Of a stretch of DNA of 64,000 nt, positions 17,161 to 35,983 are shown in pieces (the first letter of the stretch is position 1; every line of letters begins with the position of its first letter). A model generated the notes under the pieces. The model was not told the origin of the DNA. It made no database searches and was given only the letters and a program-made list of their open reading frames with translations. The translations under genes were made by a program, and so were the position numbers. The stretch is from an uncultured delta proteobacterium. GTDB taxonomy: Bacteria > Desulfobacterota > Binatia > UBA9968. The stretch is taken from positions 192,001 to 256,000 of the forward strand of contig CAVUVW010000011.1 of NCBI GenBank assembly GCA_963745035.1. Direction: 5' to 3'.

Positions 17161-20100
17161 ATGGCCAAGACAACCAAAAAAGCGGCGAAGAAAACCAATC
17201 CAAAGCCGCGCGCGGCGTCCTCGGCGGATTCGGTCTCGAAACTGAAGAAGACGATCGCCGCGCAGGGGCGGGAAATGCGCGAGGCCGCGGAGCAGCAGGC
17301 GGCGACTAGCGATATCTTGCGCATGATCGCCAGCTCGCCGTCCGATCTGCAGTCAGTCTTGGATACGATCGCCGAAAGCGCCGCTCGACTGTGCAGCGCG
17401 GATGACGCACTTGTGTGGCGAGTGAGTGGCAACGTTTTAGTGCTCGCTGCGCACTTCGGTCCGATACCCACGGTGGTGACTGAGGGTAGCGGGCATGTCA
17501 TCGATCGTGACACTCCTGCTGGGAGAGCGGTGGTCGACCGGCAAACTATCCATGTGCACGATCTCGTGAAAGCCGCCATTGATTTTCCCCGCGCTACGAC
17601 CCGCGGCATAGCCGTGGGAGTTCGGACTGCCCTTGCGGCACCCTTATTACATGAAGGAAACGTTATTGGCGTCATTCATATTCGCCGCACGGAGGTTCGG
17701 CCTTTTGCAGATCGTCACATCAAACTGCTCGAAACCTTCGCCGACCAGGCCGTTATCGCGATTGAGAATGCTCGGCTGATTGATGAGCAGCAGTCTCGCA
17801 ACCGTGAACTGACCGAAGCTCTGGAGCAGCAGACCGCGACAAGTGAAGTCCTGCGAGTCATCGCTTCCTCACCGACCGAGCTGCAACCGGTCCTCGACAC
17901 GCTGATCGCGAACGCCGTTCGGCTCTCCGGGGCAACCAGGGGGCATGTCCGGCAATACGGGGATGAGTTCTATCGTGTCGTGGCCCACTATGGCGAGACA
18001 CCGGAAATGATCGCCACACTCCGTGCCAACCCCCTGCCGGCCAGTCCGGAACTCCCTGCGGCTCGGGCGCTTCTCGGTGGCAAACCGGTCCATATACTCG
18101 ATGTTCAAGCGGAGACCGGAGTGCATCTCAATCTCGTGCGGCAAATGGGTACGCGAACATTGCTCGCCGTACCGCTGCTGCGCGAAGGAGCGAATATCGG
18201 TAGCCTCACGATCTGGCGCGATGTTTGTCGAACCGTTTACCGAACGGCAGATCGAGCTGGTCAAAACCTTTGCCGACCAGGCCGTGATCGCCATCGAGAA
18301 CGTGCGGCTGTTCCAAGAACTCAAGGAGTCGTTGGAACAGCAAACCGCGACGAGTGAGATCTTGGGCGTCATCGCCAGCTCGCCGACCGATCTACAGCCG
18401 GTGTTGGACACGATCACAGAGTGTGCCGCACGCGTGTGCGGCGCCGAAGATGCCGCCATGCGACTCGTTGATGGAAATGTGCTGCGCTTGGCCGCACACT
18501 ATGGACCGGTACCAGATGTCGCGCTGGAACGACCGATCGATCGCCACAATCCCGGTGGCCGGGCCGTAGTAGACCGAGAGATAATCCACGTCGAGAATAT
18601 GCACGATCAGGTAGCGAAAGAGTTCCCCGGGATTGTTGATACACATAGTCGCACCGCGGTTGGAACCGTGCTGGCCGTGCCCCTGATGCGAGAAGGTAAC
18701 GCTATCGGCGCGATCCACATTCGTCGCAAACAAGTCCAACCGTTTACCAATAAGGAGATTGCTCTTCTCAAAACCTTCGCTGATCAAGCCGTGATCGCGA
18801 TCGAGAACGTGCGCTTATTTAAGGAACTCGGCGAGCGCAACGCGGAATTGCGCGAAGCGCTGGAGCATCAAACCGCAACGGCCGAGGTGCTCGGCATCAT
18901 CAGCCGCTCGCCGACGGACGTGCAGCCGGTGCTCGACGCCATCGTCGAGAGCGCGGCGCGGGTTTGTGGGATCGATGACGTGGTGCTGCGACTCCGCGAG
19001 GGGAACAATATGGTTCCGCGGGCTCATTTTGGTCCCGTACCCATCGGCCGCGTCGAGATCAGTATTGATGAGCCACAGTATCGCTGGATGCGCGAGCATG
19101 GCACGCTCCACATTCCCGACGTCCGCGCGCAGAACGATTTCCCAATGTAGGTTCCGCAGCGGCTGCCCGCACCTTTTTGTTCGTTCCCCTTCGTCAGCAG
19201 GGGGAACTCATTGGAACACTCAACGCACGTCGCACCGAGGTGCGCCCCTTCACCCCGGCGCAGATCAAACTGCTCGAAACCTTCGCCGATCAGGCGGTGA
19301 TCGCCATCGAGAACGTGCGGCTGTTCCAAGAACTCAAGGAGTCATTGGAGCAGCAGACGGCGACGAGTGAAATCTTGGGTGTCATCGCCAGCTCGCCGAC
19401 GGATATCCAGCCGGTGTTGGAGTCAGTTGCCGAGAATGCGGCGCGACTGTGCGAGGCGACCGATGCGCATGATCTTCGCTGCGTCGAGGGTGACGAACTT
19501 CGTCTGTGGCGCTCATTCGGTTCAATCCCGATGCCGCCGAGCAGAGTTCGTACCCATCGATCGCAGTCGATATCCGCGGCCGCGCCATGATGGACCGGCA
19601 AACCATTCATATCGATGACCTGCAGCGGAGCGCTGAGACGAATTTCCTGACGTCCGAGGCTTCGCCAGCGAGCTGGATTCGGACTGTCTGTCGCACGCCG
19701 CTACTGCGCGAGGGCGATCGCAATCGGCGTTATCATGATTCGCCGCATGGAAGTGCGTCCCTTCACCGCAAGCAGATCAAACTTCTCGAAACCTTCGCCG
19801 ATCAGGCGGTGATCGCCATCGAAAACGTGCGGCTGTTCAAGGAATTGCAAGAGCTCAACGGAACTGCCGAGGCGTTGGAGCAGCAGACGGCGACGAGCGA
19901 AATCTTGCGGTGTCATCGCCAGCTCGCCGACAGATATCCAGCCGGTGTTGGACACCGTCGCCAAGAATGCCGCCCGGCTCTGCGAGGCGACGATGCCCAG
20001 ATTCGACTCGTTCGAGATCGACAGTGATTCGACTAGTGCGCATCCTATCGGCTACTCTCCAAGCGCCAGAATTTGTCCCCGATCGCCCGACTAAATCCCG

Positions 20101-23100
20101 GCGGCCGAGCGATTCTTAAGCGACAGACCTTCCATATTCATGACCTTCAGGAACGATCAAGGACGAATTCCCCGACAGGCACGCTTTAAGACGACGGGCT
20201 CCGGACGTTTCTTAGCGCGCCGATGATCAGAGAGGGAACGCCAATTGGCGTGATCAAATCCGACGCATGGAAGTGCGTCCTTTCTCGGACAACACAAATC
20301 ACACTGCTCGAAACATTCGCCGAGCAGGCCGTGATCGCCATCGAGAACGTGCGGTTGTTCAAGGAGATCCAGGAGCGCAACGCGGAATTGCGCGAAGCCC
20401 TGGAGCATCAGACGGCGACGGCCGAGGTGCTCGGCATCATCAGCCGCTCGCCGACCGACGTGCAGCCGGTCCTCGACGCCATCGTCGAGAGCGCGGCAAG
20501 GGTTTGTGGAATCGATGACGTGGTGCTGCGACTCAACGAAAATAATGTTCATGGTTCCGCGAGCTCATTTTGGTCCCATACCCATTGGCCAGGTCGAGAT
20601 CAGTATTGATGCCCCACAGATTCGCTGGATGCGCGAGCATGGCACGCTCCACATTCCCGACGTCCAAGCGCGGAACGATTTTCCGACGTTAGGGATCCCA
20701 GCGGCTGGCGTACTTTCTTGTCCGCTCCCCTTCGTCAGCAAGGCGAACTTATTGGACTATTGAACGCCCGTCGTATGGAGGTGCGTCCCTTCACCCCGGC
20801 GCAAATCAAGCTCCTCGAAACTTTCGCCGACCAGGCCGTCATCGCACATTGAGAATGTCCGGCTGTTCAAGGAACTGACCGAGGCGTTGGAGCAGCAAAC
20901 CGCGACGAGCGAAATCTTAGGTGTCATCGCCAGTTCGCCGACCGATATCCAGCCAGTGCTCGACGTTGTCGCTGAGAACGCTGCCCGGCTATGTGATGCA
21001 ACCGACGCGGTCATTCATCGCATTGATGGCGACGAGCTCCGACCAGTGGCGAATTACGGGCCATTGCCGGGACGGCCGGGTGAGGGTTCAGGTATTCCGC
21101 TAATGGATCGTCGATCTATACCCGGCCGAACCATAATTGACCGGCAGACACTTCACATTCATGATTTGGCAGCAGAACCAGAAGACGACCTCCCGCAGCG
21201 TTTCGCAGAAGTTCGGCGTTCGGACCGTGCTCGCTACGCCGTTGCTGCGCGAGGGAATTCCCATCGGGACGATTCATATCCGCCGCATGGAGGTCCGCCC
21301 GTTCACCGAGAAGCAAATCAAACTGCTTGAAACCTTTGCAGCACAAGCCGTCATCGCCATCGAGAACGTTCGGCTGTTCCAGGAACTCAAGGAATCGTTG
21401 GAACAGCAAACTGCAACCAGCGAGATCCTCGGCGTCATCGCCAGTTCGCCGACGGATATTCAGCCGGTGCTGGACGTTGTCGCTGAGAATGCTGCGCGAT
21501 TGTGCGACGCCGTGGACGCTCAGATGTGGCTCGTCGAAGCAGACAGAGTTCGATTTGCCGCCCAGTATGGATCGATCCCGAGTCCGAGGGTCCATGAGGG
21601 CAGGCCGATCGTTCGGGGTTTGGCGGGAGGGAGAGCTATCCTCGATCGAGAAGTCGTACATATTCCGGATACTTTCGATCCGGTCGTTGAAAGGGAATTT
21701 CCCGTAACCTGGGCACTGAGCCATGAGGTCCATATCAATACCTTGCTTGCCGCCCCGTTGCTCCGCGAAGGGATTGCCATAGGCTACATTATGATTCGTC
21801 GGCTCGAATCGCGGCCATTCTCGGAGAAGCAAATCGCGCTCCTCAAGACTTTCGCTGACCAGGCCGTGATTGCCATCGAGAACGTGCGACTGTTTAAGGA
21901 ACTGCAGGCGAGAACGCAGGAGTTGGCGCGCTCGGTCGGTGAACTGAAGGCTCTAGGTGAGGTCGGTCAAACGGTCAGCTCGACTCTCGACCTTGAAATT
22001 GTGCTGACGAGAATCGTTTCCCATGCGGTTCAGTTGAGCGGCACCGACGGTGGGGCGATTTACGAATACGACGAATCCTCGGAAGAGTTTCTGTTGCGCG
22101 CCACCCATCAGATGGACGAAGAACTCATCAACGCACTTCGCGCAAATCCGCCGCACTTGGGAGACGGGTTAGTGGGCCGGGCGGCGTCAAGCGTGAACCC
22201 ATACAAATCCCCAATATCCTCGAAGAGCGCACTTACGCGCCGCGCATGCGGCAGTTGCTCGAGCGGTTCGGCTTCCGTGCCAGCCTGGCCGTACCGTTGC
22301 TACGGGAAGACCGCATCATCGGCGGCTTGGTGGTACGGCGAAAAGCGACCGGCGAGTTTCGCCCCGAAGTCATCGAGCTTTTGAAAACCTTCGCCACCCA
22401 GTCCGTCTTAGCGATCCAAAACGCCCGGCTGTTCCGCGAGATCGAGGACAAGAGCCGGCAGATCGAGGCCGCCAACCGGCACAAGTCGGAATTCCTCGCC
22501 AACATGTCCCATGAGCTGCGCACGCCGTTAAACGCGATCATCGGCTTCTCCGAAGTCTTAGGGGAGCGACTGTTCGGCGAGCTGAACGAGAAACAAGCCG
22601 AGTACACCGAGGACATTCTCACCTCCGGGCGCCATCTCTTATCTCTTATCAACGAGATACTCGATCTCTCCAAGGTCGAGGCCGGCCGCATGGAACTGGA
22701 AGCTGGCCGCCTTCGACCTTCCCCTGGCCATCGACAATGCGCGCACCTTTGTGCGCGAGAGGGCCACCAAGCACGGCATCACGCTCGATGTAAGCGTTGA
22801 CGACCGTCTTGGCGACTACGTTGGTGACGAGCGCAAGATCAAGCAGATACTTCTCAATCTGCTATCCAACGCCGTCAAGTTCACGCCGGAGGGGGGACGG
22901 ATCGGCATTAACGCCCAGCAGGCCAACGGCGCGGTGGAAATCTCGGTCAGCGACACCGGCATCGGGATCGCGCCGGAGGACCAGCCAAAGATCTTCGAGG
23001 AATTTCGTCAGGTGGGGGCCGACTACGCGCACAAGAGCGAGGGGACGGGACTGGGGTTAACCTTGGCCAAGAAGTTTGTCGAGCTGCACGGGGGAAGGAT

Positions 23101-23167
23101 CTGGGTGGAGAGCGAAATCGGCAAGGGCAGCAAGTTCACATTCACGCTTCCGATCCCTTCCCAGTAA
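17161..23167 (+). CDS. Giant multi-GAF sensor histidine kinase 2 (10 GAF + HisKA + HATPase_c; frameshifted)
   Basis: Same module grammar as kinase 1; its last GAF and kinase core are nearly identical to kinase 1. Confidence 0.9.
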
Positions 23168-23208
23168 GGAGTCAGTGGTCAGGAGTAAGGGGCGAAGCAG
23201 AGAGAGGG

Positions 23209-23370
23209 AAAATTTCGAATAGCGAAATCCGAAATCCGAAACAAATTCAAATGATCCAAAAACTACAAATTCAAAACGAGCCAGACCGGATTCGAGGTTT
23301 TGGATTTTCCGATTTTGATTTATTTGGCTTTCGAGTTTGTTTCGGATTTCGATATTCGGATTTCGGATTT
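23209..23370. repeat. CGAAATC-heptamer hairpin element, empty copy A
   Basis: cgaaatccgaaatccgaaacaaa ... tttgtttcggatttcgatattcggatttcggattt. Confidence 0.9.
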
Positions 23371-23449
23371 AGTCGGGTGTGGTGAGTTGGCGGGAACATA
23401 CTCCGGAATCAGCAGAGTGTTTTCTCGGAAAATGGAGTGAGGTGGACAT

Positions 23450-24267
23450 ATGCCGATCATCACAATCTATCAGGGCGCGTCCGGCGAAGGTCAGGAATTG
23501 GCGGAATCTCTCGCTACGGCTCTTGGTTATCGATGTGTAGGGCGTGACGTGCTCGTTGAGGCGAGTCGGCGCTATGGCATACCCGAGGCAAAACTCAACG
23601 AGATCATCGACAAAGGCCCTCACTGGTGGGAGCGTCTGCTGCAAGATTTGCGACCCTACCGGCTTGTTCTTCAAGCTGCGCTCTGCGAACTGGCTCAGGA
23701 GGGAAAACTGGTGTACCACGGCCACTTGGGTCACGAGCTTTTGCCTGATATTGGGCACGCGCTGAGAGTACTCTTGACCGCGCCAGTCGAATTTCGCATC
23801 CAACAAATTCGCGCGCGGCAAAATCTGAGTGATGCCGCAGCGCGCCGTTATCTAGAAGAGGTGGACAAGGCGCGCAGCCGCCGGCTCATGGCGATGTTCG
23901 GCGCGGATTGGCGTGATCCGACTCGTTTGACCTTATACTCAATATGAGCACGATGAGCCGAGAGGGGGCGACGCGTGTGATTTTAGAGGCAGCGAAGCTC
24001 GAAGGATATCAGCCGACTCCCGCTTCCGATCAGGCTTTGAAGGATCTCGCGCTTGGTTCTCGGGTCTATGCCGCGTTATTCGGATCGCCCGATTTACGAG
24101 TATCATCCCTCGAGGTTCGTGCCGATAGTGGCCATATCCACGTCAAGGGTAGAGTCAATCAGGGCTCGGAACATCAGCTTGTAAATATAGTGAAAAATGT
24201 ACCCGGTGTGATCAGAGTCACATCCGATGTTTATTCCGCTCCGCCGGAAGGATTTTTAGAACCCTGA
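23450..24267 (+). CDS. Cytidylate-kinase-like protein with C-terminal BON domain (frameshift near 23930)
   Basis: IITIYQGASGEG, LRVLLTAP and DWRDP motifs; LEVRADSGHIHVKG...VPGVIRV BON domain. Confidence 0.8.
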
Positions 24268-24319
24268 GCGAATTCAGATCCGAAGCACTGGCGGGAGAAG
24301 ATCCAGATCGGAAAAGATT

Positions 24320-24450
24320 ACTCGCGCAAAGACGCAAAGGCGCCAAGATAACCCAATTGTCCTTTCGACCGAAGGGAGAAATCTTTCTTAGATCCCTCAC
24401 ACTCGCTCGGATAACGGGGCTCGGCCGTCACTTGCCGACTTGGCGAAGAA
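24320..24450. repeat. GCAAAG hairpin element with a nested TGTC/GACA-family element
   Basis: ctcgcgcaaagacgcaaaggcgccaag [tgtcctttcgaccgaagggagaaatct...agatccctcacactcgctcggataac] cttgccgacttggcga. Confidence 0.7.
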
Positions 24451-24497
24451 AAGTCGAGAATCCGAGAAGAGTATTCTGGCGCAAAGACGCGAATCAA

Positions 24498-24657
24498 AAT
24501 ATCGAAGCACGAAATCCGAAATTCGAAACAATTTTCAATGTTTAAAAAAACGAAATTTCAAACAACGACTATTCAGACTCAGTGTTTTGGATTTGCCGAG
24601 TTTGAGAGTTGCTTGATCGCTGATTGTTTCGGATTTCGATATTCGGATTTCGGATTT
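24498..24657. repeat. CGAAATC-heptamer hairpin element, empty copy B
   Basis: cgaagcacgaaatccgaaattcgaaacaat ... attgtttcggatttcgatattcggatttcggattt. Confidence 0.9.
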
Positions 24658-24678
24658 GGAACTTCCGGGATGTAGAGG

Positions 24679-27600
24679 ATGCCTCCTACTAAGCGACTAC
24701 CATCAAAAAAGCGCAGTCCCGCTCCTAAGGGGGCCAACGCTAAGCTTGTTCGCGAGAACAAGGAGTTACGGCGGGAGCGTGACGAGAGCGCAGAGCAGCA
24801 GGCCGCGACCAGCGAAATTCTGCGCATGATCGCGCGCGCGCCGGCGGATCTTCAGTCGGTGATGGATACGATTGCCGAGAGTGCTGCTCGGTTGTGTGAT
24901 GCCAAGGATGCTGTGATTTTTCGCGTTGAGGGTGATGTTCAGCAACGGGTGGCGGTATATGGAGCAATGCCAACGGCAACAGCTATTGGAATCCGGGGCA
25001 TTACTCGTGGGACTCCCGTGGGCCGAGCTATCATCGATCGGGAGACGATTCACATCCATGACATCGCGGCAGAGATTGAAACAGAGTTCCCAGAATATCG
25101 GACTATCCAAAAGGCTACCGGCATTAGAACTGCGCTGGCCACACCGCTTATGCGCGACGGTGTGCCGATTGGCGTCATTAACATTCGCCGCATGGAAGTG
25201 CGCCCGTTTACAGACAAGCAAATCAAGCTACTCGAGACCTTCGCTGATCAAGCGGTAATCGCGATCGAGAACGCCCGGCTTATTCATGAACAACAGGCGC
25301 GCAATCGGCAACTGACGGAGACTTTGGAACAGCAGACCGCCACCGGCGAGGTGCTGGAGGTGATCAGCAGTTCACCGACCGACCTTGAACCGGTCTTTCA
25401 AACGATCTTGGCGAACGTCACCCGATTGTGCGAATCCAACATCGCACACGTAGCTCTCTACGACGGCGAAGCGCTAGATGTCGTCGCTCAGCACGGCGCC
25501 ACAAGGGAATTTGCCGAATTCCTCAAGGGCAAACGAAACCCCAGTCGTGAGACTCCGACTCGACTGGCGGCGCTGGAGCGGAGGACTGTTCATGTGTCCG
25601 ATCTGCTGACGGATCCCGAGTTCTCACCCCCGCAGATCGAGGTATACCAAAGGGAGAATATCCGGACGGTATTGTCCGTTCCAATGCTACGCGAAGGCGC
25701 CCTTGTCGGAGTCATGACCACGTGGCGGCGCGAAGTGAGAGCCTTCACGGACAAGCAGATAGCCTTGGTGCAAACCTTTGCCGCACAGGCAGTCATCGCC
25801 ATCGAAAACGTGCGGCTGTTCCAAGAACTCAAGGAATCGTTGGAGCAGCAGACAGCGACGAGTGAGATCCTGGGCGTGATCGCCAGTTCACCGACGGATC
25901 TTAAGCCGGTGCTGGACGCTGTTGCTCGAGAGCGCAGCACGGTTGTGCGAAGCGAACGATGCGCAAATTCGTCGTACTCGACGGTGAAGGTCATCCGAGT
26001 TGCAGCATGTTATGGCCAAATACCGCATGTGGAATTGGGAGTAGACAAGGGCATCAGTCGGGAGATCGTCAATGGCCGCGCGATTATCGAGCGCAGGACC
26101 GTTCACGTCCACGACCTAGCGACAGAAATGGAGAACGAGTTCCCAGCCTCGAGAGTATTCCAGGAACGCTTTGGAACGCGCACCGTCCTTGCTACGCCGC
26201 TACTGCGAGAGGGCGTTCCCATAGGAGTGATTCATGATTCGCCGAACCGAAGTCCAGCCCTTCTCGGACAAGCAAATCAAGCTACTCAAAACTTTCGCCG
26301 CTCAGGCAGTGATCGCCATCGAGAACGTCCGGCTGTTCAAGGAGATCCAGGAGCGCAATGCGGAATTGCGCGAGGCGCTGGAGCATCAGACCGCAACGTC
26401 CGAGGTGCTAGGCATAATCAGCCGCTCGCCGACGGACGTGCAGCCGGTCCTCGACGCGATCGTCGAGAGCGCGCGCGAAGGTTTGCGGGATCGATGACGT
26501 GGTGCTGGGGTTGCGCGAGCAGGAGATGATGAACGCGCGGGCTCATTTTGGCACATACCATACCGGCCGCGATGAGATCAGCGTTGATGACGCCACGGTA
26601 TAACTGGATGCGCGAGCACGGCACGCTCCACGTTCCCGACGTCCGCGCCGCGCAGAACGATTTTCCAACGTTGGGTGTTGTCGGGGGTTTTCGCACCTTC
26701 TTGGCTGCTCCCCTTCGTCAGCAGGGGGAACTCATTGGATTACTGGGCGCACGTCGCACCGAGGTGCGCCCCTTCACCCCGGCGCAGATCAGGCTGCTCG
26801 AGACCTTCGCCGACCAGGCGGTCATCGCCATCGAAAACGTTCGACTATTCCAAGAACTCAAGGAATCTTTGGAACAGCAAACTGCGACGAGTGAAATCTT
26901 AGGCGTCATCGCCAGCTCGCCGACGGATATCCAGCCAGTGTTGGACACGGTCGCGGAAAATGCCGCCCGGCTATGCGAGGCGACTGATGCGCAGATTCGC
27001 CTCGTGGAAGGCGACGGCCATCGATTGGTGGCGTCATTTGGAACTCTCCCAGCCCCGGAGTTTCGAACCACAAGCGTAGAAAACCCATTCAGCCGCGCGA
27101 TTCTTACGCGAGAAACAATACATATTCACGATCTTCAGGAAGGGTCTGGTTATGATTCATCCTCTGGAACACGGACCCTTCTAAGCACACCGATGCTCCG
27201 AGAGGGGACGCCGATAGGTCTGATCAATATCAGGCGCACGGAAGTTCGTCCTTTCTCCGACCGACAGATCAACTTCTTGAAACGTTCGCAGGCAAGCCGT
27301 CATCGCGATCGAGAACGTGCGGCTGTTCAAGGAAATCCAGGAGCGCAACGCGGAATTGCGCGAGGCGCTGGAGCATCAGACCGCGACGGCCGAGGTGCTT
27401 AGCATCATCAGCCGCTCGCCGACGGACGTGCAGCCTGTGCTCGATGCGATCGTCCAGAGCGCGGCAAAGGTTTGCGGGATCCATGATGTGGTACTGCGAT
27501 TGCGGGGGCGCGACACGATGAAAGTGCGGGCGCATTTTGGGTCCATCCCAACTGGTCGTCCGGAGATCAGCGTGGATGAGCCGCAGTATCGCTGGATCGA

Positions 27601-30600
27601 CGAGCACGGCGCGCTTCATATTCCCGACGTTCGCGCGCAGAACGAATTCCCTTCACTGGGTTCCACCGGCTTCGTACCTATTTGGTTGTTCCACTTCTCC
27701 AGCAAGGAGAATTCATTGGGGTACTTGGCCGCGCGTCGCAACGAAGTGCGTCCCTTCACTCCCGCGCAGATCAAACTTCTTGAGACATTTGCTGATCAGG
27801 CAGTCATCGCACTCGAAAACGTGCGGTTGTTCAACGAACTCAAAGAATCTTTGGAGCAGCAAACCGCCACGAGTGAAATCTTAGGCGTCATCGCCAGCTC
27901 GCCGACGGACATTCAGCCGGTGCTGGATGCGGTGGCTGAGAGTGCGGCTCGCTTGTGCGAAGCGCCAGATGCCGTGATCTTCCGCCGAGATGAGGGTGTT
28001 ACTCGACCTGCGGCGCGGTATGGATCGATTCCATTGGCCCGGCCTATTGGAGAAGCTTTTCCTGACACGAGTGGATCGCCTCCTGGAAGAGCGATGATCG
28101 ATCGGAAAACGATTCATGTTCACGACATTGCTGCGGAACTCGATCCGAATATCCGGACTCCAAGCCCCGTCACATAACTACCGGTTCGCGCACGATACTG
28201 GCTACTCCATTGCTGCGTGAAGGCGTGTCAGCAGGCGCAATCATGATCCGCCGCACCGAAGTTCGCCCTTTCACTGATAAACAGATCAAACTTCTTGAAA
28301 CATTCGCTAGCCAAGCGGTCATCGCCATCGAGAACGTCCGGTTATTCCAGGAACTCCAACAACGCAATCGAGATCTTACTGAGGCGCTGGAGCAGCAGAC
28401 GGCCACGAGTGAGGTGCTCGGGTCATCAGCGGCTCGCCGACCGACGTGCAGCCGGTCTTCGATGCGATCGTGCAAAGCGCCACCAGGCTGTGCGAAGCAT
28501 CCTTCGGCTCGGCACACCGCTTCGAAGACGGCTTGGTCACGTTCGATGCGCAGCACGGTATGACGCCCGAACAGTTCAAAATCGGCAAAGAGCGATTTCC
28601 AACACCTCCGTCCCGAGAAACTGCTGTAGGTCGAGCGATCATGAGTCGAGAGGTTAGACATATTCACGACATCGAAGCTGATCCTGAATATGTCTTCATC
28701 CCTCATCAACGGCAGCTCAGCTATCGCACCGTGCTGGCTGTGCCACTGTTAAAGGAGGGCAATCCGATCGGTGCGCTTGGCATGTGGAGACGGGAAGTAA
28801 AGCCGTTCACAGAAAAGCAGATCGCTCTCATTGAAACATTTGCCGACCAGGCGGTCATCGCCATCGAGAACGTGCGGCTGTTCAAAGAGCTAGAGGAACG
28901 TAATCGCCAGATTACCGAAGCTGGAGCAGCAGACGGCAACGAGTGAGATCTTGCGTGTGATCGCGAGCTCGCCGACGGATATTCAGCCCGTACTGGATGT
29001 AGTCGCGGAGAATGCGGCGCGGCTTTGTGAGGCGAGTGACGCTCTGATTTATCGGCAGGCGGACGGCCGGGCCCACTTGGCAGCCCGATTTGGTGATATT
29101 CCTGTTGCGCCTGACCCGCTGCCCATCAGCCGTGGCTTCGTAGGCGGGCGGGCAATGGTGGATCGAAAAACGATTCATGTGCACGATGTCTCCGTGGAGA
29201 ACGAGACAGAGTACCCGGAGGCCAGGCATCTGCAACGGATCGCGGGAGCCCGTACCGTTCTGGGCACGCCTCTGCTTCGCCAGGGCGAACCCATCGGCTC
29301 GATCGTGATTCGCAGGCAGGAGGTTCGGCCTTTTACGGAGAAACACATAAAGCTCCTGGAAACGTTCGCCGACCAAGCTGTGATCGCGATCGAGAACGTC
29401 CGGCTGTTCAAAGAACTCGATACTCGCAATCGCCAACTCACCGAGGCGCTGGAACAGCAGACGGCGACGAGCGAGATATTGCGCGTGATCGCCAGCTCGC
29501 CAACGGATATCCAGCCGGTGTTGGATGTGATGGCCGAAAATGCCGCGAGGCTGTGTGACGCCACGGATGCCGCGATCATTACGAATTGAGGGCGACTCAT
29601 ACGGATCGTGGCGAATTATGGCAACATGCCGATATCCGGCGCGATCGAGTCTCGACCACTTGATTCGTGGTCGTTATTCCGGCTAGAGCGATGATCGACC
29701 GGCAAATGATACATATTCATGACATTGAGGCGTGCCGGAAGACAGATGGATTTCCCGAAGCCTCGGCTCTCGTTAGAAGTCTCGGCATCCGCACGGTTCT
29801 GGCAGCGCCCCTGCTTCGTGAAGGAACTGCGATCGGCGCGATTCTGATTCGTCGCAACAACGGTTCGACCTTTTAGCGAAAAGCAGATCGCGCTTCTAAG
29901 AACCTTCGCCGACCAGGCCGTGATTGCCATCGAGAACGTGCGGCTGTTCCAAGAGTTGCAGGAACGGACGCGCGAATTGGTGGAGTCCATGGAGGAAATG
30001 AAGGCACTGAGCGAGGTCGGGCAAGCAGTAAGCTCGACCCTCGATCTTGAAACTGTGCTGGAAACCATCGTCGCGCGGGCCGTCGAACTGTCGGGGACCG
30101 ATTGCGGCGTTATTTACGAATATGACGAGGCGGCCCAGGAGTTTAATTTGAGGGCGAGCCACCACATGGAAGCCGAGGCAGTTGAAGTGCTTAGGACGGC
30201 GCGCATCCGTCTCGGGGAAGGCGCAACCGGGCAAGCGGCGAGCACGCGCGCGCCGGTGCAGATCCTGGATACGTCCGAAGAGCAGCAACGAGCGGTCTCA
30301 AGGGTAAGACCCGTACTGAATCGATTGGGTTACCGCTCACTACTCACGGTGCCGATCCTGCGCGAGCAGCAGATCATGGGTGGACTGACGCGTGTGGCGG
30401 CGGCGGGTTGGGGAGTTTGAACCGGAGGTGGTTAAGCTCCTGCAAACTTTCGCGACGCAGTCGGCTCTGGCGATCCACAACGCGCGGCTGTTCCGCGAGA
30501 TCGAAGAAAAGGGCCGGGAGATCGAGGCGGCCAACCGGCACAAGTCGGAATTTCTCGCCAACGTGTCGCATGAGCTGCGCACGCCGCTCAACGCGATCAT

Positions 30601-31219
30601 CGGCTTTTCGGAAGTATTGCAGGAGAGATTGTTCGGCGAGTTGAACGAGAAGCAAGCCGAATATACCGACGACATTCTGTCCTCCGGGCGCCATTTGCTG
30701 TCGCTGATCAACGACATTCTGGATCTATCCAAAATCGAAGCGGGGCGCATGGAGTTGGAGGTGACGACGTTTTATCTGCCGGACGCCATCGAGAACGCGC
30801 TCCTGCTCGTGCGCGAGCGCGCCAGCCGGCACGGCATCAAGCTCGATCGCGCCATCGACGACCGGCTCGGGGACTTCACCGGCGACGAGCGGAAGGTCAA
30901 ACAGATTCTCGTCAACATTCTCTCCAATGCGGTCAAGTTCACGCCGGAGGGCGGGCAGGTCAAAGTCGATGCACATTTGGGCGACCACAGCGCGATCATT
31001 TCGATTTCCGACAGCGGCATCGGCATTGCCAAGGAGGATCAAGAAGCGATCTTCGAAGAATTCCGGCAAGTCGGCAGCAACTACGCCCACAAGCGCGAAG
31101 GCACGGGTCTGGGGCTCACGCTGACGAAGCGCTTTGTCGAAATGCACGGCGGCAAAATTTGGGTCGAGAGCGAAGTCGGCAAAGGCAGCACGTTCACTTT
31201 CACGCTGCCGATCGGATAA
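24679..31219 (+). CDS. Giant multi-GAF sensor histidine kinase 3 (11 GAF + HisKA + HATPase_c; frameshifted)
   Basis: Repeated GAF modules; [25 protein letters not shown] and GTGLGL. Confidence 0.9.
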
Positions 31220-31224
31220 GAAAA

Positions 31225-31327
31225 TTATCTCGCAAAGGCGCAAAGGCGCTAAGTTAAAGGAGGTGGGAGATGAAATTTGTCTGCGTTTGTTTTTCTAAAC
31301 TTTGCGTCTTGGCGACTTAGCGAGAGA
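31225..31327. repeat. GCAAAG hairpin element, empty copy
   Basis: tctcgcaaaggcgcaaaggcgctaagtt ... aactttgcgtcttggcgacttagcgaga. Confidence 0.85.
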
Positions 31328-31349
31328 TCTCCGGATCCGGATCGGAGTA

Positions 31350-31794
31350 TTATCTCGCAAACGCAAAGGCGCTAAGTTATGACGGAGAATGATATCGGAA
31401 GAATCGTTGTCGATGCAGCGATTGCAGTACATCGGGAGCTTGGGCCGGGTTTGCTCGAAAGCGTGTACGAAGTCATTATGGCCTACGAATTAGGACGACG
31501 TGATCTCTCAGTGAGACGGCAGGTTCCGATACCGATCCACTACAAACAGATGATATTCGAAGAGGCGTTCCGCGCCGACTTGGTGGTCGAAGACAAGATT
31601 ATCATAGAGCTAAAATCAATTGAGCAAGTCAGCGAGGCCCACAAGAAACAGCTCCTGACTTATCTGCGGCTAACAGGCTGTAAACTGGGATTCCTTCTTA
31701 ACTTTGGTGAGGCGCTGATGAAGCGGGGCATAACGCGCACTGCAAACGGAATCGAGGATTTCTAAACTTTGCGTCTTTGCGCCTTTGCGAGAGA
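31350..31794 (+). mobile_element. GCAAAG hairpin cassette carrying the GxxExxY gene
   Basis: Arms 31350-31378 and 31760-31794 match the adjacent empty copy and abut the ATG and TAA. Confidence 0.7.
31379..31765 (+). CDS. GxxExxY family protein (PD-(D/E)XK nuclease-like fold)
   Basis: LGPGLLESVYE, FRADLVVEDKIIIELKS, QLLTYL and GFLLNF motifs. Confidence 0.93.
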   Translation: MTENDIGRIVVDAAIAVHRELGPGLLESVYEVIMAYELGRRDLSVRRQVPIPIHYKQMIFEEAFRADLVVEDKIIIELKSIEQVSEAHKKQLLTYLRLTGCKLGFLLNFGEALMKRGITRTANGIEDF

Positions 31795-31809: not shown

Positions 31810-32187
31810 ATGGCTAATGAACTGATTTTGATCGTCGAGGATAATGAAAAGAACCGGAAGCTTGCCCGGGATGTACTCCAGGTCAAGGGTTATAGGACCA
31901 TCGAAAGCGAAACGGCGGAGGAAGGGCTTAAACTCATTGTAGAGAAAGGTCCGGACCTCATTCTTATGGACATCCAACTGCCGGGCATGGATGGCATCAC
32001 GGCGATGAAACAGCTCAAGGCCGACCCCGGCACAACAAGCATTCCGGTCATCGCGATCACCGCGTCGGCGATGACGCACAACAGGACGACTATGCTGGCG
32101 GAGGGATTCGACGGCTACCAGACCAAGCCGATCAGTCTGAAAGATTTTATCGGGGAAATTGAAAGAGTGCTTTCAGTACACAAGTAA
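31810..32187 (+). CDS. Single-domain response regulator (DivK-like)
   Basis: ILIVEDN, PDLILMDIQLPGMDG, IPVIAITA and TKPI. Confidence 0.92.
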   Translation: MANELILIVEDNEKNRKLARDVLQVKGYRTIESETAEEGLKLIVEKGPDLILMDIQLPGMDGITAMKQLKADPGTTSIPVIAITASAMTHNRTTMLAEGFDGYQTKPISLKDFIGEIERVLSVHK

Positions 32188-32793
32188 ATCCGAAGCACGA
32201 ATTTCGAAATCCGAAACAAATTTCCAATGCTTAAATAACAGAAAATACAAAACTGCAGCTAAAGATTCGCTAGCATAAGATACAAATGGAAACCGTCGGG
32301 CTAGGCACAGCCAAAACGAAGCCACCAAGAAAATATGATCTGGAAGATCGGACCCTTGAGTTCGCCAAAAATGTGCGGACATTTGTTCGGCAAATTCCGA
32401 AAACCATAGCGAATATTGAAGATTCTAAGCAAGTCGTTCGATCGTCCGGCTCCATTGGCGCAAATTACATAGAAGCGAATGAATCTATCGGCAAGAAGGA
32501 CTTCCTGATGAGAATCCGAATCTGCCGCAAGGAAGCTAAGGAAACTCGTTATTGGTTGCGCTTGATTGAAATCGTCGACAATCCGACTCTGGAGAAATAT
32601 AGGGTTGAGCTCATCGGGGAGGCGACCGAGTTAATGAATATATTCGGCGCTATTCTTCGTAAAAGCGAATAGATCTTTGAAATTCAGAAGGCCCCGAAGG
32701 ATCTAATTCGGAGTTCGAAGTTTTGAATTTTCTTCGTTTGACATGCATTTGATTGTAATTTGATTCGGATTTCGAGATTCGGATTTCGATATT
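32186..32793 (+). mobile_element. CGAAATC hairpin cassette carrying the four-helix-bundle gene (filled copy C)
   Basis: Left arm 32186-32254 and right arm 32719-32793 are homologous to the four empty copies. Confidence 0.75.
32286..32672 (+). CDS. Four helix bundle protein (23S rRNA intervening-sequence protein / Avd-like family)
   Basis: DLEDRTLEFA, QVVRSSGSIGANYIEA and KEAKETRYWLRLI motifs. Confidence 0.92.
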   Translation: METVGLGTAKTKPPRKYDLEDRTLEFAKNVRTFVRQIPKTIANIEDSKQVVRSSGSIGANYIEANESIGKKDFLMRIRICRKEAKETRYWLRLIEIVDNPTLEKYRVELIGEATELMNIFGAILRKSE

Positions 32794-32798
32794 ATTGA

Positions 32799-33914
32799 AT
32801 GAATACACCTCCCAAAATTCTCGTGGTCGATGACACGCCGCGGAATGTAAAACTTCTCGCGGATCTGTTGGTCGTGAAGGGCTACGGCGTCATCACCGCG
32901 GATTCCGGACGCGAGGCTTTGATCAAGCTCGATGCCGAGCAGCCGGACTTGGTCTTGCTCGACGTCGTCATGCCGGAGATGAGCGGCTACGAGGTGTGCC
33001 GCAAGATCCGTGAAAACTCCGCGACGGCGATGCTGCCGGTCGTCATGGTAACGGCGCTCGATCCCGCCGAGGAGCGAGTTAAGGGGATCGATGCCGGCGC
33101 TGATGATTTTCTCAGCAAGCCGATCAATCAAACTGAACTGCTTGCCCGCGTCAAGTCGCTGCTTAGAATCAAGGAGCTGCACGATACCGTGCGAACCCAA
33201 TCCACGCAGCTTGCCGAGTGGAATCAAAGGTTAGAGGGGCGTGTTCAGGAACAAGGGGAACAGCTGGAACGTTTGGAGCGACTGAAACAATTCTTCTCGC
33301 CGCAGCTTGCGGAGATGATCGTCAACGGCGGGGCCGAGGATCCGCTGAAAACGCACAGGCGAGATCTGACCGTCGTTTACTTGGATCTGCGCGGGTTTAC
33401 CGCCTTCGCTGAGAGCGCCGAGCCGGAAGAAGTGATGGACATCTTGCATGAGTATCACGCGGCGATGGGAAAATTGATCGACGAGTACGAGGGGACCGTC
33501 GAGCACTTCGCCGGCGACGGCATGATGATTTTCTTCAACGATCCGGTGCCGGTCGATAACCCGGCGGAGCGGGCGGTGCAAATGGCGCTGGCGATGCGCG
33601 CGCAGGTGAAAGAACTGACGGTCAAATGGCGCAAGCTTGGCCACGATCTTGACTTCGGCGTCGGCATCGCCCAGGGGTACGCCACCATCGGCGCCATCGG
33701 ATTCGAAGGGCGCTGGGAGTACGGCGCGATAGGAAGCGTCCCGAATTTGGCTGCTCGTCTTTGCGGTGAGGCGAAGCCGGGAGAAATCTTGGTTCCGCAG
33801 CGCTTGCTCGGCAAGGTGGAAGACGTGGTAGAGGCTGAATCTGCCGGTGAATTAACTCTGAAAGGTTTTCATCGACCCGTGAGCGCATACAATGTTCTGC
33901 GACTCAAAGTGTAG
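32799..33914 (+). CDS. Response regulator fused to a class III adenylate/guanylate cyclase
   Basis: REC domain (ILVVDD, LLDVVMP, SKP), coiled coil, then DLRGFT, AGDGMM and NLAARL. Confidence 0.92.
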   Translation: MNTPPKILVVDDTPRNVKLLADLLVVKGYGVITADSGREALIKLDAEQPDLVLLDVVMPEMSGYEVCRKIRENSATAMLPVVMVTALDPAEERVKGIDAGADDFLSKPINQTELLARVKSLLRIKELHDTVRTQSTQLAEWNQRLEGRVQEQGEQLERLERLKQFFSPQLAEMIVNGGAEDPLKTHRRDLTVVYLDLRGFTAFAESAEPEEVMDILHEYHAAMGKLIDEYEGTVEHFAGDGMMIFFNDPVPVDNPAERAVQMALAMRAQVKELTVKWRKLGHDLDFGVGIAQGYATIGAIGFEGRWEYGAIGSVPNLAARLCGEAKPGEILVPQRLLGKVEDVVEAESAGELTLKGFHRPVSAYNVLRLKV

Positions 33915-33916
33915 CA

Positions 33917-34078
33917 AAAAGTCGAAGCACGAAATCCGAAATCCGAAACAAATTCGAATGGTCAAAAAAAATGGAATGTTCCAAACGGTGCTGATTTCTG
34001 ATTCCGCGTTTGGAATTTGCCCGCGTTTTGGATTTGTCTGTCTTTGTTTCGGATTTCGAAATTCGAATTTCGGGTTTT
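33917..34078. repeat. CGAAATC-heptamer hairpin element, empty copy D
   Basis: cgaagcacgaaatccgaaatccgaaacaaa ... tttgtttcggatttcgaaattcgaatttcg. Confidence 0.9.
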
Positions 34079-34096
34079 GAGGTAGTAGGAGATGCC

Positions 34097-35753: not shown

Positions 35754-35774
35754 AAGCGAGGAACTTCTCGGATT

Positions 35775-35803
35775 TATCGCGCAAAGGCGCAAAGACGCGA
35801 AGG
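35775..35803. repeat. GCAAAG-family left arm only
   Basis: tatcgcgcaaaggcgcaaagacgcgaagg. Confidence 0.65.
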
Positions 35804-35813
35804 TAGGAGAATC

Positions 35814-35973
35814 AAATTCGAAGCACGAAATTCGAAATCCGAAACAAATCCGAATGACCGAAAACCAGAAATCTGAAACGAGTCTGAAATCGGATTTATT
35901 TTGAAAATTTCTTCCGATTTTGACTTATTGCTTCCAACTTTGTTTCGGATTTCGATATTCGGATTTCGGATTT
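35814..35973. repeat. CGAAATC-heptamer hairpin element, empty copy E
   Basis: cgaagcacgaaattcgaaatccgaaacaaa ... tttgtttcggatttcgatattcggatttcggattt. Confidence 0.9.
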
Positions 35974-35983
35974 ATGTTTAAAG

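Follow-up and report, generated by a model that had tools for sequence, protein, structure and literature searches.

The locus and its setting

Why should a gene for a small four-helix-bundle protein lie between inverted repeat arms in the spacer of a host operon, and what might its product have to do with those arms? Such a locus lies in the window, by which is meant the whole stretch of 64,000 nucleotides that was analysed. An earlier note, made from the sequence alone, had placed an IVP/Avd-like four-helix-bundle gene in the loop of an element with four empty siblings, and the gene-plus-arms feature is real: the ORF at 32286-32672 matches TIGR02436 with 69.9 bits (cut-off 24) and PF05635 with 51 bits (cut-off 33.8), and its inverted arms are common to 17 empty copies. 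Profile searches matched this protein to no other family, and neither they nor a structural comparison of the model of a relative (L103) brought out a transposase or catalytic motif; the protein contains zero histidine. The gene is, as had been claimed, visibly AT-richer than its surroundings (G+C of 0.46 vs 0.576 across the window), and its frame is intact and strongly conserved.

On folding, 32186-32793 forms one long hairpin of -182.3 kcal/mol (z -5.15, with none of 20 shuffles as good), whose inner arms enclose 464 bp, where about 465 had been estimated. The overlap of the left arm with the receiver stop and the gap of 5 nt between the right arm and the cyclase ATG also hold, with the outer arm now refined to 35 nt in five units: the AA of the first left-arm unit is part of the TAA at 32185-32187, and 5 nt separate 32793 from the ATG at 32799. 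Both host genes, for a response regulator and a receiver-cyclase, lie on the gene's own strand (Table 1), and a sequence scan found no promoter-like site inside the element. In Rfam searches the window gave no rRNA match and only weak miRNA matches (E 0.39-0.82), and none of the 37 loci scanned had a match at the gathering score; an rRNA-like motif match in one of the loci (L114) was not borne out. Contigs from two RNA runs gave no cover at 32248-32609, which counts neither as excision nor as silence, and the candidates for an excision joint in contigs assembled from two RNA and two DNA runs have short sides or intervening letters and resemble other repeat copies.

Table 1. Features of the locus and related elements in the window
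Feature	Position	Strand	Basis
Empty sibling	23209..23372		
Empty sibling	24498..24657		
Empty sibling of second arm family, directly 5' of GxxExxY cassette	about 31228-31328		
Parallel cassette of second arm family (8-9-nt units), holding GxxExxY gene	31352..31790	+	
GxxExxY gene, TIGR04256/PF13366	31379-31765		profile searches
Upstream host gene, single-domain response regulator (PF00072)	31810..32187	+	profile search
Left outer arm, five 7-nt units (xxAA, then four CGAA)	32184..32218	+	
Left inner arm	32243..32255	+	folding
Four-helix-bundle gene, TIGR02436/PF05635, 128 aa, G+C 0.46	32286..32672	+	profile searches, ORF list
R125 codon, end of helix 4; residue tracking arm-unit base 2	32658..32660	+	helix from relative's model
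Right inner arm	32720..32732	-	folding
Right outer arm, same five-unit array on opposite strand, ending 3-5 nt 5' of cyclase ATG	32761..32795	-	
Downstream host gene, receiver and adenylate/guanylate cyclase domain (PF00072, PF00211)	32799..33914	+	profile search
Empty sibling, directly 3' of cyclase stop	33916..34079		
Empty sibling	35812..35975		

Empty copies and history of the site

The four empty siblings in the window stand up as folded inverted-arm elements, with a mean column identity of 76% in their alignment and folding z scores of -3.3 to -6.6. The window's genome as a whole contains 18 paired elements, 17 of them empty (114-176 bp) and one filled, together with nine single arms, and the core arm pattern has 0 matches in 2 Mb of base-shuffled sequence from the genome. 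A target-site duplication is not evident, the longest word shared by the flanks being 0-4 nt over the 18 elements and 4 nt in only two of them, a measure in which old copies could have lost theirs. Relative to the upstream stop, empties occur in both orientations (15 vs 8 where callable under strict calling). Folding is better in one orientation for 31 of 43 empties, by a mean of -3.2 kcal/mol, which is a weak hint at RNA-level pairing with an overstated p value, because the empties are related copies.

Element families can stack in one spacer, as partial arms of the second arm family (8-9-nt units) lie directly 5' of two empties (window 24320-24500 and 35765-35810). In another genome (G049), fifteen near-identical CTAA hairpins (L212-L226) lie within a MITE of ~200 bp. 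This MITE has terminal repeats of its own, and several copies show a 4-bp AT-rich target duplication, so that the hairpins hitchhike in a conventional element; it accounts for the sole recent copy burst observed. The same genome has three tandem empty hairpins at ~188-bp spacing with another heptamer repeat between them (L228, G049:C48:70500-72200).

Among relatives, the junction of the two host genes was followed at 20 loci, 17 of which were usable, two lacking the cyclase start and one being cut short. All 17, one of which may be a paralogous site, have a repeat-armed element before the cyclase. This element belongs to the C[G/T]AA family and holds the gene in four loci (including the window), is an empty of the same family in one, and comes from other families in 12; different relatives carry different elements at the orthologous junction. 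The earlier note had named retention of the gene at this site without arms as a sign against its reading, and arms are present at all four gene-bearing loci. Its layout of a gene within a loop fits the window and is looser elsewhere: G012 has a complete empty on each side of the gene, and G019 and G004 have a left arm on one side and a complete empty on the other. Among 30 other genomes of the genus, all of them fragmented assemblies, arms occur in 27 and a close copy of the gene in just four; five genomes of the genus, likewise fragmented, have 27-94 arm matches and no close copy of the gene. Upstream of the locus, at 19500-31220 of the window, genes for GAF-domain and histidine-kinase proteins are broken into many overlapping frames, by assembly errors or decay.

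Arm architecture across homologous loci

The arms were compared in a pooled set of 160 homologous loci, 80 from named genomes and 80 from metagenomes, in which 102 left and 99 right arms could be placed with an anchor that itself fixes three units. In the arm, an AA-only unit leads into four C[G/T]AA-NNN units, and beyond the former conservation drops to background. The fourth unit is kept in 88% of the left and 94% of the right arms, and the fifth shows AA in 88% and 95%, respectively, and C[GT]AA in just 5% and 1%. Slippage as the source of the tandem repeats is ruled out, since the unit number is fixed at five. A same-strand stop lies at most 80 nt from 95 of 113 left arms (within -2 to +8 nt in 70) and a same-strand start at most 80 nt from 92 of 115 right arms, the opposite-strand counterparts numbering 23 for stops and 29 for starts; filled elements run in the operon's direction.

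The motif is equally well kept on the top strand in the left arm and on the bottom strand in the right arm. The NNN spacers in the two arms of one locus show no paired changes (0.510 vs 0.504 shuffled, 61 loci), nor do those of 43 empties agree better than shuffled ones (0.450 vs 0.458). G-U pairs are not clearly favoured over A-C mismatches either at 52 loci (112 vs 124), at the pooled loci (122 vs 103) or in the 43 empties (96 vs 81 in outer and 41 vs 37 in inner arms). Selection for an RNA stem, on which the earlier reading leaned, thus goes unsupported so far, and since paired changes and a clear G-U bias are both missing, the arms resemble a pair of binding arrays, one on each strand, more than a selected stem. 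The spacers themselves are drawn, at loci L051-L211, from a small set (ATC, ATT, GCA, TAT, TTT, ACT) shared by both arm types and common across phyla, in shuffled order.

Match between protein clade and repeat unit

The 80 closest homologues are spread over many phyla. A three-unit array in the same polarity flanks 72 of them, including 52 with one on each side; among control windows 700-920 nt away, 0 of 71 and 3 of 66 contain such an array. Next to distant paralogues, arrays of the C[G/T]AA family occur in 0 of 25. Other members of the protein family have arms of their own with other units of 6-9 nt, and 28 of 40 pass an inverted-match test. In the window's genome, seven of 11 full-length paralogue loci pass a shuffle test for inverted short-repeat arms and the other four show arms by eye, with units that mostly differ from one another. 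The expectation that other four-helix-bundle genes would have heptamer arms has thus been borne out as regards inverted short-repeat arms and not as regards the C[G/T]AA heptamer. Genome-wide counts of arrays of the paralogues' units had a mixed outcome overall: 79 for one 9-nt unit, 32 for another and one for the unit of the C2 paralogue, with up to five for some control units.

A search for phage copies of the gene gave one weak match of 20 residues and then none in viral contigs. The L022 protein (G012) is 86% identical to the L051 protein from a Syntrophobacteraceae genome; this identity across lineages, together with the similar arms around both genes, suggests transfer between distant lineages. 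In the window's genome, ten TIGR02436 matches (genes and fragments) cluster at G000:C13:1773819-1796930 among nested arms of several unit types. Within the same contig (G000:C13:1787222-1789576), a four-helix-bundle gene is split by ~2 kb that hold the genome's only, broken, reverse transcriptase match, an insert whose ends we take to resemble those of a group II intron.

Residue 125 and the second base of the unit

Within the clade the arm unit is either CGAA or CTAA, and the choice follows a single residue of the protein: 29 of the 30 loci with CTAA arms encode T or E at position 125, and 118 of the 119 with CGAA arms encode another residue, mostly R. The discovery set comprised 80 loci, six of which were dropped as short or untyped; here, T/E occurs in 11 of 11 CTAA and 0 of 63 CGAA loci, and residue 125 is the sole fully matching column. 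Because the rule had been spotted by eye, it was then fixed and tested on the 80 metagenome loci, a set enriched in T/E relatives by a query led by a T/E protein. T/E was found in 18 of 19 CTAA loci and non-T/E in 55 of 56 CGAA loci, with five untyped; six of these CGAA loci have S, A, I or V at 125, outside the first residue list. Residue 125 was again the top column; in both sets the runner-up is residue 118, at a distance of two helical turns. A cause at the DNA level, such as a gene end mimicking the arm unit, is ruled out because the codons for residue 125 vary synonymously. The dispersed arms of genomes with a T/E protein are mostly CTAA in four of five cases (CTAA to CGAA 7:3, 24:4, 52:0 and 10:1, the count of 52 in G049 being inflated by the MITE); the exception, G051, has a T-type gene and yet mostly CGAA arms (4 CTAA vs 16 CGAA).

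The best tree needs 12 changes, and, on average, T/E proteins resemble one another no more closely than they resemble R proteins (E-E 0.67, E-T 0.66, T-G 0.69, G-G 0.67). Nevertheless, a single T/E-CTAA clade is not rejected by the AU test (p 0.63), and the well-supported branches force one change only, which amounts to one independent pair. The T/E-CTAA group may have had one origin, in which case the match could be one of shared ancestry. Since residue 125 changes together with base 2 of the unit across many bacteria, the covariation suggests that the protein reads the repeats both around its own gene and around the gene-less copies.

Structure of the protein

The closest solved relative of the protein is 2RLD (five chains, E 3e-13). 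The model of L103, a relative 67% identical to the protein, is a four-helix bundle (pLDDT 95) that matches 2RLD, 2GSC and Avd, with TM scores of 0.70-0.72 to 4DWL and 8UB7, and in it residues 118 and 125 lie two turns apart on helix 4. A complex of L103 scored 0.43 against 0.00 for the best control, with runs agreeing in at least 75% of contacts and pLDDT of at least 84, passing a mark that 20 of 30 solved pairs and one of 23 single chains attain; it was modelled with four copies, not five, and the pass may be memory of solved relatives. The interface named in this model involves helices 1-3.

A Xanthomonas member of the family is described as a homopentamer (PMC4990558), and in a study of Avd, all five protomers contact one RNA stem-loop, reading flipped-out bases with the same residues (bioRxiv 10.1101/2023.10.23.563531). 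As solved relatives are pentameric, Avd protomers read RNA and the arm has five units, an arrangement of five units for five subunits may be envisaged by analogy.

Proposed mechanism and its alternatives

The layout, the five-unit arms, their position at stop and start codons and the matches of protein clade to unit and of residue 125 to base 2 are direct observations. As to what lies behind them, we lean, with modest confidence, towards a selfish arm-gene-arm cassette, whose ring-shaped protein would recognise the arms and so help to copy or recombine filled and empty forms. The cassette would lodge in short operon spacers in the direction of the host genes, be read from the host transcript and leave gene-less derivatives. 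Its protein would form a five-membered ring like the solved relatives. A single strand would wrap round this ring so that every subunit binds one of its 7-nt units, and the C[G/T]AA core would be read by helix 4, as the covariation suggests. The two arms may be two recognised ends, one per DNA strand. The hairpin follows from the inverted layout and probably helps the host to tolerate the insert; its cutting by RNase III is plausible as a side effect, given that the enzyme cuts the IVS of Coxiella (PMC4990558). The weakest step is the last one, that recognition might help the cassette and its empties to be copied or recombined, while a host or trans-acting enzyme perhaps does the cutting and joining; such an enzyme is proposed because the protein lacks a transposase motif. 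The GxxExxY system, with the same layout and a possible nuclease, is for these reasons a candidate for the missing enzyme or else for a parallel system; GxxExxY genes have their own arms, different from the C[G/T]AA arms. In many relatives the GxxExxY (PD-(D/E)XK) gene, in some cases broken, again precedes the receiver gene. The genome's five Y1 transposase matches are all on other contigs.

By way of one residue from which one base can be predicted, the reading connects two puzzles: what a very common protein family does, and why intergenic regions carry unexplained 7-base repeats. Were binding to switch with residue 125, the family would be a ring-shaped, sequence-specific reader of nucleic acids with natural variants for units of 6-9 nt, and the movement of cassettes and of rRNA intervening sequences would become directly testable. 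More speculatively, and with clear reservations on our part, such transposase-free mobile elements might be widespread, a pentamer reading five-unit arrays, one unit per subunit, by a helix-4 code of residue to base and thereby driving the spread of the cassette and its gene-less copies; rRNA intervening sequences (IVSs) and many intergenic heptamers would then be footprints of such elements, and Avd a recruited member.

Three other explanations have to be weighed against the selfish cassette. An unlikely one is that protein and arrays form a regulatory pair that is not mobile, in which the protein would bind the array in mRNA, compete with the complementary arm and tune translational coupling or decay, the arrays having been spread by recombination or gene conversion and kept by the host. 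The tight placement of the arms at stop and start codons would suit this role, as would RNA binding by Avd (as described in bioRxiv 10.1101/2023.10.23.563531) and the proposal that intergenic heptamers before start codons are sites for an unknown post-transcriptional regulator (put forward in PMC4679880). However, the motif is equally kept on opposite strands, only one of which mRNA would show as the motif, element families have been swapped at one junction among close relatives, and near-equal proteins occur in distant phyla, as with the G012 and Syntrophobacteraceae loci.

We consider it distinctly unlikely that the element is an mRNA-embedded IVS, as the earlier note had supposed, with an RNA stem under selection and an RNase III cut that releases or destabilises the gene-bearing loop and splits the operon transcript. 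The analogy with IVSs is nevertheless real, because the 23S rRNA IVS of Coxiella burnetii, with a homologous gene, likewise has tandem heptamers in its 5' arm and is cut by RNase III at the first of them (PMC4990558). The strong hairpin, the direction of the gene with the operon, the lack of a promoter-like site and the better folding of empties in one orientation are all in keeping with such an IVS. A generic stem, however, leaves the fixed five-unit array and the residue-to-base match unexplained, the arms show neither paired changes nor a clear G-U excess, and cutting without re-joining offers no route to new sites.

Very unlikely, finally, is passive cargo, in which the hairpins would be moved by another enzyme (the GxxExxY nuclease, a Y1 transposase or a larger MITE) and the protein-repeat match would reflect co-inheritance: the possible single origin of the T/E-CTAA group, the arm-rich genomes without the gene, the hitchhiking G049 hairpins and the presence of GxxExxY and Y1 transposase genes in the genome speak for it, but only residue 125, then 118, among all protein columns marks the arm type in two sets, T/E proteins are on average no closer mutually than to R proteins, the best tree needs 12 changes, the frame is intact and strongly conserved, and the GxxExxY genes have arms of their own.

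Comparison with known systems

The selfish cassette shares features with several known systems. Like the C. burnetii IVS with its S23p protein, it carries a gene of this protein family in a loop closed by a terminal stem and has lower G+C than its host (PMC4990558). Three heptamers and a degenerate one are given for the Coxiella arm, as against five units here; the window's genome, unlike the Coxiella case, has dispersed empty copies, and in the available text of that paper no connection is drawn between protein and repeats (PMC4990558). ORF-bearing rRNA IVSs lie in a 16S or 23S rRNA gene, whereas the window element, with its S23p/PF05635 protein and complementary ends forming a stem around the ORF, lies in an operon spacer between protein genes; we regard it as a new, non-rRNA variant of the ORF-bearing IVS cassette, which its location keeps out of that class.

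DDE-type insertion sequences and MITEs are recognised by a target-site duplication and a transposase encoded by the full-length copy, neither of which was found for the window element. The Avd proteins of DGRs, with which the match for PF05635 in the open literature dealt, have the same fold, as judged from the L103 model, and form a pentamer each of whose protomers can read RNA bases, but they are described as binding one stem-loop and not a periodic array (bioRxiv 10.1101/2023.10.23.563531; PMC10053308), and the adjacent reverse transcriptase gene of DGRs has no counterpart near the locus, the genome's only match being the broken one on another contig. The intergenic heptamers of Beggiatoaceae, Cyanobacteria and Bacteroidetes resemble the arms in having two to six 7-nt units just before start codons in scattered phyla; they are presented as direct repeats without a known partner, and the terms 'helix bundle', 'intervening' and 'S23' are absent from its main text (PMC4679880).

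REPIN-RAYT systems share with the window system dispersed extragenic inverted doublets (here the 17 empties), variable spacers and several repeat groups per genome, as well as repeats beside the gene of the partner protein (PMC3337134). According to the same source, the RAYT is an IS605-like tyrosine transposase and the REP a short palindrome, as opposed to a four-helix bundle without histidine and an arm that is a five-unit tandem array; the HUH/Y1 tyrosine transposase partner is thus lacking here, and by analogy REPIN-RAYT is the closest working parallel (PMC3337134). The operon cassette and the residue-to-base match were not found described in the open literature. What the locus at 32286-32672 adds to these systems is a testable specificity residue, together with evidence that its arms behave like a pair of binding arrays.
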